From: Escherichia coli
Lineage (GTDB): Bacteria; Pseudomonadota; Gammaproteobacteria; Enterobacterales; Enterobacteriaceae
Direction: 5' to 3' (one strand)
NCBI RefSeq assembly: GCF_030384885.1
Contig: NZ_CP128613.1
DNA: 64,000 bases
In this document: positions 54,048 to 54,683 of the stretch, in pieces
Layout of the letters: each line of letters opens with the position of its first letter
How positions within the stretch are numbered: position 1 is the stretch's first letter
The notes under the pieces: model-generated
What the model was told of the DNA's origin: nothing
Seen by the model: the letters and a program-made list of their open reading frames with translations, nothing else
The model's database searches: none
Translations under genes and position numbers: made by a program

Positions 54048-54683
54048 TTACAATTTGTAGCATGACGGATATAGGACAACATTAGGAAATCGGACAGAAA
54101 ATTCATTATAATAAAATGACAACTTATCTCTTTCTCTCACGTTCTGTGAAATTTCACAAAAGTATAAACTGAGCCAATATGCCTTTATATATAAAAAATA
54201 CTCATGTTTATTATTATCGGAAAAAGCCAAGATTTGATTAAGGCCATCAAAAATATCTTTCTCATGATCTATATGTACTCTTGATGATTTTACAATATCT
54301 TTTAATTCGCGGTAAATCTTATTAAATAGCGCAACCGATTCACTGTTATTGAATCCATAGTTGATAAAAAGACATGATTTAACATCCGATATTAGTAAGT
54401 CGTCATAATCTATCTCAATTCCACACAATTTCACGATATACTCAGCTATAGTATTACTTTGCAAGGACTCAACAACTGACAGTAAAACAGATGGATGCAA
54501 TAATATTTCAAGAAGACTTCTGTCGATATTTTTATACACATTTATTGCAAATTCATCACTCGTCCCATCGATGATGTCAGATATTAAAAAAAATACATAC
54601 TCGGGGAGTTCATACCACATATTAATTTTAATAATATCACGACACATATCTTCTAACTGTTGTAATCTATTACCTTTATTCAT
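54048..54683 (-). CDS. Hypothetical protein (211 aa), AT-rich, no recognisable domain
   Basis: Single long ORF in a visibly AT-rich segment; no signal peptide or transmembrane segment; lies between yddH and the ISAs1-family transposase. Confidence 0.5.
   Translation of the reverse strand: MNKGNRLQQLEDMCRDIIKINMWYELPEYVFFLISDIIDGTSDEFAINVYKNIDRSLLEILLHPSVLLSVVESLQSNTIAEYIVKLCGIEIDYDDLLISDVKSCLFINYGFNNSESVALFNKIYRELKDIVKSSRVHIDHEKDIFDGLNQILAFSDNNKHEYFLYIKAYWLSLYFCEISQNVRERDKLSFYYNEFSVRFPNVVLYPSCYKL

Follow-up and report, generated by a model that had tools for sequence, protein, structure and literature searches.

A putative orphan immunity gene for EndoU ribonuclease toxins of type VI secretion effectors beside yddH in Escherichia coli

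We describe an open reading frame (ORF) of 211 amino acids (aa) located beside yddH in a 64,000-nucleotide stretch of the Escherichia coli contig NZ_CP128613.1, referred to here as the window. The ORF was called on the minus strand from ATG to TAA (54048-54683). With a probability of roughly three in four, we consider it to encode an orphan immunity protein against one subfamily of the EndoU ribonuclease (RNase) toxins carried by type VI secretion system (T6SS) effectors. An earlier reading of the same DNA from its sequence alone, termed here the original prediction, had placed a 211-aa AT-rich ORF between yddH and an ISAs1 element, and this placement was confirmed. The evidence for a function comes mainly from the divergent homologues of the ORF in other bacteria, which lie directly behind EndoU toxin domains in the position expected of an immunity gene.

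Association of the family with EndoU toxins

The loci of divergent homologues were looked up, giving nine separate genomic contexts in total. A toxin was found directly upstream of the family member in five of the nine and a toxin remnant directly upstream in two, while the last two showed neither. The family member starts 9-16 bp behind the end of an ORF matching EndoU_bacteria (PF14436), or overlaps it by 4 bp, and always on the same strand; these distances are taken from loci L005, L010, L012/L014, L016, L019 and L020, with a remnant at the DNA level in L008. All six upstream partners tested by hmmscan passed the PF14436 gathering score of 25.3, at 26.4-65.5 bits. The original prediction had suggested looking for co-occurrence with Rhs or CdiA C-terminal domains, and such co-occurrence was indeed found, specifically with EndoU domains on Rhs, PAAR-like and VgrG-associated effectors.

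The toxin-adjacent relatives differ in their distance from the window ORF and in the effector to which the toxin belongs. The relative from Pseudocitrobacter faecalis (63% identity to the window ORF; L005-L007) follows a 135-aa EndoU_bacteria ORF after a 16-bp gap, at the end of a T6SS effector operon with DUF2169 and Tox-PAAR-like domains. In Morganella morganii (35%; L012, also L012-L014), an ORF combining a Pyocin_S linker with EndoU precedes the family member by 14 bp within an array of orphan toxin-immunity pairs behind VgrG-DUF4123. The neighbouring pair in this array consists of Colicin_D followed by Colicin_immun, so that the family takes the immunity position in a toxin-immunity arrangement that repeats along the array. 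A more distant member on a metagenomic contig (26%; L016, within L015-L017) lies 9 bp behind an EndoU ORF, beside Rhs fragments. Members from Proteus mirabilis (L019) and Xenorhabdus bovienii (L020), both 35% identical to the window ORF at an E value of about 1e-37, lie downstream of an Rhs-EndoU protein and of an Rhs C terminus that follows a DPxGL-type demarcation motif, respectively; the toxin of L019 has a frameshift at its C terminus. The same relationship was recovered in the reverse direction, as both downstream ORFs examined from a search with the toxin domain (203 and 205 aa; L019 and L020) were family members. Two further loci hold remnants. In Shigella flexneri (52%; L010), an 88-aa ORF at a 16-bp gap represents the C-terminal two-thirds of the toxin, is 71% identical to the Pseudocitrobacter toxin and also scores above the PF14436 cutoff. 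The Escherichia albertii locus (60%; L008) has no toxin ORF, but 122 nucleotides (nt) directly upstream match the 3' terminus of the toxin gene from Pseudocitrobacter at 79.5% identity (L005; E 1.6e-25).

The upstream toxins are 57-71% identical to one another and were on this basis assigned to one subfamily, with the signature GGGHGQ...NIPxHxxKxKR...QSWFP...GSIFP, which fits the His-His-Lys catalytic set given for EndoU toxins (PMC9086364). The proteins encoded downstream diverge more than the toxins, with 29-57% identity in the same pairs, and the association held across delivery scaffolds, namely Rhs (L019, L020 and the neighbourhood of L016), PAAR-like/DUF2169 (L005) and VgrG/DUF4123 with a pyocin-S linker (L012). 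The toxin is basic, with an isoelectric point (pI) of 9.7 versus 4.9 for the window protein. A natural Pseudocitrobacter toxin-immunity pair was also modelled with AlphaFold2 (AF2) as a single chain joined by a 40-residue linker on a partly paired alignment; both halves fold (predicted template modelling score (pTM) 0.56, predicted local distance difference test (pLDDT) 75.7), in a model that carries no interface measure.

Two observations concern the toxins themselves. The PAAR-like-associated EndoU effector of Pseudocitrobacter (L005 3235-4400; L006 and L007) is split by a frameshift into overlapping ORFs of 272 and 135 aa. Because the split is identical in three independent assemblies, this toxin may be a pseudogene or may require recoding. 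The EndoU toxin subfamily also occurs in Firmicutes (Paenibacillus, Brevibacillus, Bacillus and Enterococcus), at about 45-54% identity (P0036-P0071).

In the mechanism that we propose, the family would be the cognate immunity protein of this PF14436 subfamily, whose EndoU domains are the C-terminal warhead of T6SS effectors of the Rhs, PAAR-like/DUF2169 and VgrG/DUF4123-linked types, the last with a pyocin-S-type linker. By analogy with other nuclease immunity proteins, producer strains would presumably make the immunity protein together with the toxin, which it would bind one to one and so block RNA cleavage. This E. coli lineage would have lost the toxin gene and been left with the immunity gene as an orphan, which lies next to ISAs1 where the yncG-yddH T6SS effector island is decaying at its distal end. 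If expressed, the orphan would protect its carrier from the EndoU effectors of competing bacteria, for example Proteus, Morganella, Xenorhabdus or Pseudocitrobacter.

The gene and its protein family

The ORF product is identical to RefSeq WP_032184207.1, which is annotated as a hypothetical protein, and other alleles are named "aminopeptidase" in many NCBI and UniRef entries. With a GC content of 0.30, the ORF lies well below the nar-yddH flank (about 0.50-0.55), and local 400-bp windows fall to 0.30-0.31. We regard the ORF as a real gene because its length is kept in homologues, the ratio of nonsynonymous to synonymous substitution rates (dN/dS, Nei-Gojobori) is below 1, the AF2 model is confident and RefSeq annotates a coding sequence. 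The alternative considered in the original prediction, that the ORF might not be a gene at all, is at odds with the length conservation, the dN/dS and the RefSeq entry. Between genera, dN/dS is 0.12-0.51 at high, saturating dS. Comparisons of intact E. coli alleles gave 0.24-0.48 (P = 0.006-0.12 per pair); all pairs lie below 1, and for two of them the departure is significant (P = 0.006 and 0.019). Values involving the allele of strain CP52E were disregarded as unreliable owing to its frameshift. AAGG, AAGGG or AAGGA occurs upstream of the homologues in L005, L008, L010 and L012 at the same place as the Shine-Dalgarno-like motif of the window ORF. A scan for promoters and terminators around the ORF gave no convincing signal.

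The product is predicted to be a small soluble cytoplasmic protein with an all-helical globular fold. It is acidic (pI 4.7-5.1), and its maximum 19-residue Kyte-Doolittle hydropathy of 1.51 suggests that it has no transmembrane helix, in agreement with the original prediction. AF2 produced a confident model of 12 helices (pLDDT 88.4, pTM 0.86) from an alignment of only 13 sequences. Scans of the product against Pfam, NCBIfam and PADLOC gave no match at E<=1, which upholds the earlier remark that it has no recognizable motif. The Pfam scan of 13 family members gave only scattered chance matches at E>=0.008 and no Imm, SUKH, SuFu or MafI model at E<=1. A profile search of sequences in the PDB returned a best E value of 0.06 and no meaningful relative, and Foldseek with the AF2 model gave no match at E<0.1. 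The profile search and the structure prediction proposed with the original prediction yielded no known family and a confident all-helical model.

Homologues of the product span 25-63% identity and at least seven genera, with a length held at about 198-211 aa and, depending on the alignment, 11-13 invariant columns including ESxQ, D100, LF and Y124. The family is small by every search used. A word-indexed search of 5.8 billion proteins gave 16 clusters, an exhaustive phmmer search of 1.84 billion representatives gave 13 representatives at E<=0.001, and a profile search of the 5.8 billion proteins with a broadened alignment gave 27 clusters, none with a Pfam domain. Searches of the literature found no description of the family. 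It is thus a rare, small family that has neither a published nor a modelled description.

Several immunity families for EndoU toxins have been reported, including Imm-SUKH, Imm-SuFu and Imm28 (Zhang et al. 2012, PMC3482391) and MafI, the immunity protein for a Salmonella PAAR-Rhs-EndoU toxin (PMC10469887). The present family shares with these the toxin superfamily and the genomic logic. However, it has no sequence match to any of the four, and the profile search of 5.8 billion proteins recovered only its own members, so that at the level of sequence it is distinct from the reported EndoU immunity families. Imm28 is likewise mostly alpha-helical according to its description, and the separateness from Imm28 holds at the sequence level. 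As presented in the account in PMC9086364, which draws on Michalska et al. 2018, CdiI-STECO31 is the immunity protein of the EndoU toxin CdiA-CT-STECO31 (PDB 5HKQ). The presumed role is shared, as both would be small cytoplasmic neutralizers encoded directly after an antibacterial RNase domain of EndoU fold. In contrast to CdiI-STECO31, which is listed there as alpha/beta, the present family is predicted to be all-helical, and neither the PDB sequence search nor Foldseek (E<0.1) linked the two. The route of delivery also differs, as the toxin of CdiI-STECO31 is carried by CdiA whereas the toxins of this family ride on T6SS effectors. The Morganella locus resembles its neighbouring colicin D and colicin D immunity pair in organization only, with a pyocin-S linker and toxin followed by an immunity gene, and the toxin and immunity folds are unrelated to those of that pair.

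The assignment gives an evidence-based function to a protein that is present on hundreds of E. coli contigs and now labelled "hypothetical" or, wrongly, "aminopeptidase". The EndoU partners known so far, SUKH, SuFu, Imm28, MafI and CdiI-STECO31, would be joined by a further immunity family whose inhibitor fold is probably new, and the assignment supplies a defined toxin-immunity pair that can easily be tested. As a kind of gene it is ordinary, since the type of toxin is known and only the immunity family lacks a model, and a practical consequence is a corrected annotation.

Orphan status and competing explanations

A tblastn search with the toxins found no EndoU match in the 64-kb window, and the DNA immediately upstream, both in the window and in strain 042, gave no toxin remnant by tblastn with the toxins or by blastn with the toxin genes. 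The Pseudocitrobacter toxin DNA had no blastn match in 5,426 complete E. coli genomes, at a DNA-level sensitivity of about 65-70% identity or more. On the basis of these two results, the window copy is most likely an orphan immunity gene. The last 20-25 nt before the ATG may resemble the end of the toxin gene, a similarity too short to count. The resident Rhs was rejected as the cognate toxin because its C terminus lacks an EndoU domain and a 132-aa ORF of its own lies behind it. The ORF itself lies at the distal end of the effector island, beyond the main effector-immunity pair, in the window, in L001 and in 042. Among the 5,426 complete genomes, 193 carry it at full length and 237 carry any part of it, the carriers including enteroaggregative E. 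coli 042 and some Shiga toxin-producing strains. In 44 genomes it is cut to its last 250 nt or fewer, and in the one of these examined (elppa4), ISAs1 abuts the breakpoint. The gene is not plasmid-borne; a tblastn search of a plasmid collection returned a single match, whose 4.9-Mb record is evidently chromosomal and whose accession also appears among the chromosome matches.

Orphan modules of toxin C-terminal regions and immunity genes have been described for Rhs and contact-dependent inhibition loci (Poole et al. 2011, PMC3150448). The window ORF resembles these in its place at the distal end of a vgrG-rhs island, in its AT-rich composition and in lying on the strand of the effector genes, and its homologues elsewhere are found directly behind full-length Rhs proteins. 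The relatives in Shigella and E. albertii retain a truncated toxin C terminus upstream, as classic orphan modules do. In contrast, the window copy consists of the immunity gene only, without any toxin fragment. A further difference is that some strains carry the ORF in an array of five small ORFs without Rhs, VgrG or ISAs1 nearby, an arrangement that is closer to a poly-immunity array.

Several observations weigh against the assignment as an orphan immunity gene. Even the nearest toxin-adjacent homologue shares only 63% identity with the window protein, and immunity specificity can change at such a distance. Both the E. coli yddH locus and L011 are without any toxin trace upstream; in L011 (8001-9206), the family member P0022 lies directly after flgN and was called as a 401-aa ORF that is over-extended at its 5' end and has about 130 extra C-terminal residues. 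A simple scan found no sigma-70-like promoter on the minus strand within the 203-bp upstream region; transcription may enter by read-through from ISAs1. Purifying selection within E. coli gives a weak signal, and the frameshift in CP52E together with the 44 truncated copies suggests that the gene may be drifting. These points would be accommodated if the ORF were a decaying relic, a former immunity gene that has ceased to be expressed or selected in E. coli and has so far escaped deletion. Such a relic would fit the presence of the ORF in only 237 genomes, the lack of a predicted promoter and a decayed neighbourhood that comprises relics of a GNAT gene and of pptA and internally deleted rhs and vgrG genes, and the within-species dN/dS is based on few substitutions. 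However, all annotated copies that were examined among the 193 full-length ones are intact coding sequences, with alleles diverging by up to about 4% in DNA sequence; dN/dS is below 1 in all intact pairs, with the two significant values given above; and the Shine-Dalgarno-like motif is retained. We therefore consider a mere relic unlikely, although it is the strongest of the alternatives. At the other extreme, the family could inhibit EndoU RNases through a structurally new, all-helical fold that has no solved or modelled relative, and the E. coli orphan could be a working shield across genera. We hold this stronger version tentatively, at somewhat less than even odds. If true, the ORF would be an acquired interbacterial defence gene, not a relic, against the EndoU effectors that Morganellaceae and other Enterobacterales of the gut deliver by T6SS, and any protection that it gives would bear on which E. 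coli lineages withstand Proteus or Morganella when attacked in the gut or the urinary tract.

The remaining explanations are far less probable than an orphan immunity gene. An accessory protein of EndoU effectors, such as a chaperone, adaptor or stabilizer, would also be encoded beside the toxin, and we give it little credence. The T6SS adaptors DUF4123 and DUF2169 lie upstream of the effector in the same loci, whereas the family, where the toxin is present, always comes directly after the toxin domain, and persistence without an effector makes sense for an immunity protein and not for a chaperone. The aminopeptidase identity found in public records has its sole support in the name carried by NCBI and UniRef entries, and it can be regarded as effectively refuted. 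Neither the product nor the 13 family members matched a peptidase or any other Pfam or NCBIfam model at E<=1 apart from the chance matches noted above, the PDB profile search gave nothing below E = 0.06 and the all-helical model has no peptidase-like structural match, leaving neither a peptidase catalytic domain nor a peptidase fold. Refuted as well, by the conservation of the family, is the view that the ORF arose by chance in AT-rich DNA of foreign origin. Low GC, the lack of a known domain and the lack of a predicted promoter would agree with it, but length and register are kept across the seven or more genera with the invariant columns described above, dN/dS stays well below 1 at saturating dS and AF2 gives a pLDDT of 88.

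Locus architecture and neighbouring features

The features of the window around the ORF are collected in Table 1.

Table 1. Coordinates of the ORF and adjoining features in the window
Feature	Position	Strand	Basis and remarks
ORF, putative orphan member of an unmodelled acidic family, predicted all-helical, in the EndoU immunity position	54048..54683	-	ORF call, RefSeq coding sequence, homologues, AF2, pI, homologue context
AAGG, Shine-Dalgarno-like motif 5 nt 5' of the ATG	54689..54692	-	Read from the sequence; putative function
Upstream region of 203 bp, in common with E. coli 042, GF4-3 and CP52E	54684..54886	-	About 90% identical to the 042 counterpart
ISAs1 (H-repeat, ydcC-like) element, context only	54886..56153	-	97% identical to K-12 ydcC; DDE_Tnp_1 and DDE_Tnp_1_assoc
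Spacer 3' of the ORF with GNAT relic at 53722-53895	53691..54047	-	57-aa ORF, weak match to the rimI C terminus
Trace of pptA (3' end) following the yddH stop codon	53657..53700		About 45 nt, roughly 75% identity to K-12; no protein-level match

To the left of the ORF lie yddH (53087-53656; Flavin_Reduct, E 4.7e-22), nhoA, yddE and narWV, and to the right the transposase of ISAs1 (54898-56034), the reverse transcriptase of a group II intron, the C terminus of an Rhs protein together with its immunity ORF, and what remains of vgrG. In K-12, pptA lies between ydcC (ISAs1) and yddH. A blastn alignment showed that 1,196 bp of the window (53690-54886) stand in place of 286 bp of K-12 containing pptA, and K-12 PptA had no tblastn match in the window at E<=10. 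The statement in the original prediction that the ORF occupies the position of pptA, with no pptA-like ORF present, proved accurate. The alignment suggests that most of pptA was displaced by the AT-rich block. PptA, a member of the 4-oxalocrotonate tautomerase family, was excluded as an identity for the ORF, as the tblastn search gave no sign of homology. At a coverage of at least 80%, pptA is present in 4,083 of the 5,426 genomes.

The gene order in the window and in L001 (strain 2013C-4282) is vgrG, rhs, the 132-aa ORF, group II intron, ISAs1, the ORF and yddH. In 042, the ORF occupies the same position, after vgrG, an M35 peptidase gene and the downstream ORF of the latter. The end of ISAs1 abuts the upstream region of the ORF at 54887. 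At this junction 042 has an extra 812 bp, between an ISAs1 fragment and the ORF, that carry a 186-aa ORF and are gone in the window; from this comparison, the ISAs1 element of the window has removed an upstream neighbour that 042 keeps.

Strains GF4-3 and CP52E show a different order at this locus, with yncG, four AT-rich ORFs (90, 108, 129 and 186 aa), the ORF, an intact GNAT acetyltransferase gene and yddH, and no ISAs1, Rhs or VgrG. The four small ORFs (L024 4992-6753) are encoded on the same strand and have no Pfam match, and 042 has the 186-aa one (L002 13445-14005). Together with the ORF, they form a candidate poly-immunity array. Because these two strains carry the ORF beside yddH without ISAs1, Rhs or VgrG, the ORF is not cargo of the Rhs/ISAs1 block. 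The original prediction had offered an orphan immunity gene or another horizontally acquired cargo gene; the former is supported by the EndoU linkage. The GNAT gene is intact in CP52E (155 aa; L023 3211-3678). The window is short of 464 bp relative to GF4-3 (L024 3372-3836), and through this deletion only the 57-aa relic of the gene is left. In about 420 further genomes, uropathogenic E. coli (UPEC) 536 among them, just the segment corresponding to window 53692-53883 is retained. The locus thus offers a natural series of T6SS effector island decay next to core genes, with states that include pptA, the small-ORF array, the array together with ISAs1, Rhs and VgrG, and truncated forms.

Further differences were seen to the right of ISAs1. 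The group II intron reverse transcriptase/maturase gene (ltrA; 56241-57758, minus strand) lies between the 132-aa ORF (58202-58600) and ISAs1. Relative to the nearest complete genome, 2013C-4282, the window is without L001 18382-20887, inside the rhs core, at about 59980, and without L001 21893-23760, comprising the 5' part of vgrG and the region upstream, at about 60984. On account of these missing segments, the resident Rhs, of which only a 507-aa C-terminal ORF is left, and VgrG look degraded. In UPEC 536 (L021) and 042 (L002), PAAR, VgrG and an effector of the M35 peptidase type take the place of VgrG-Rhs in the yncG-yddH island. This comparison shows a swap of the effector module with a constant yddH-proximal end.
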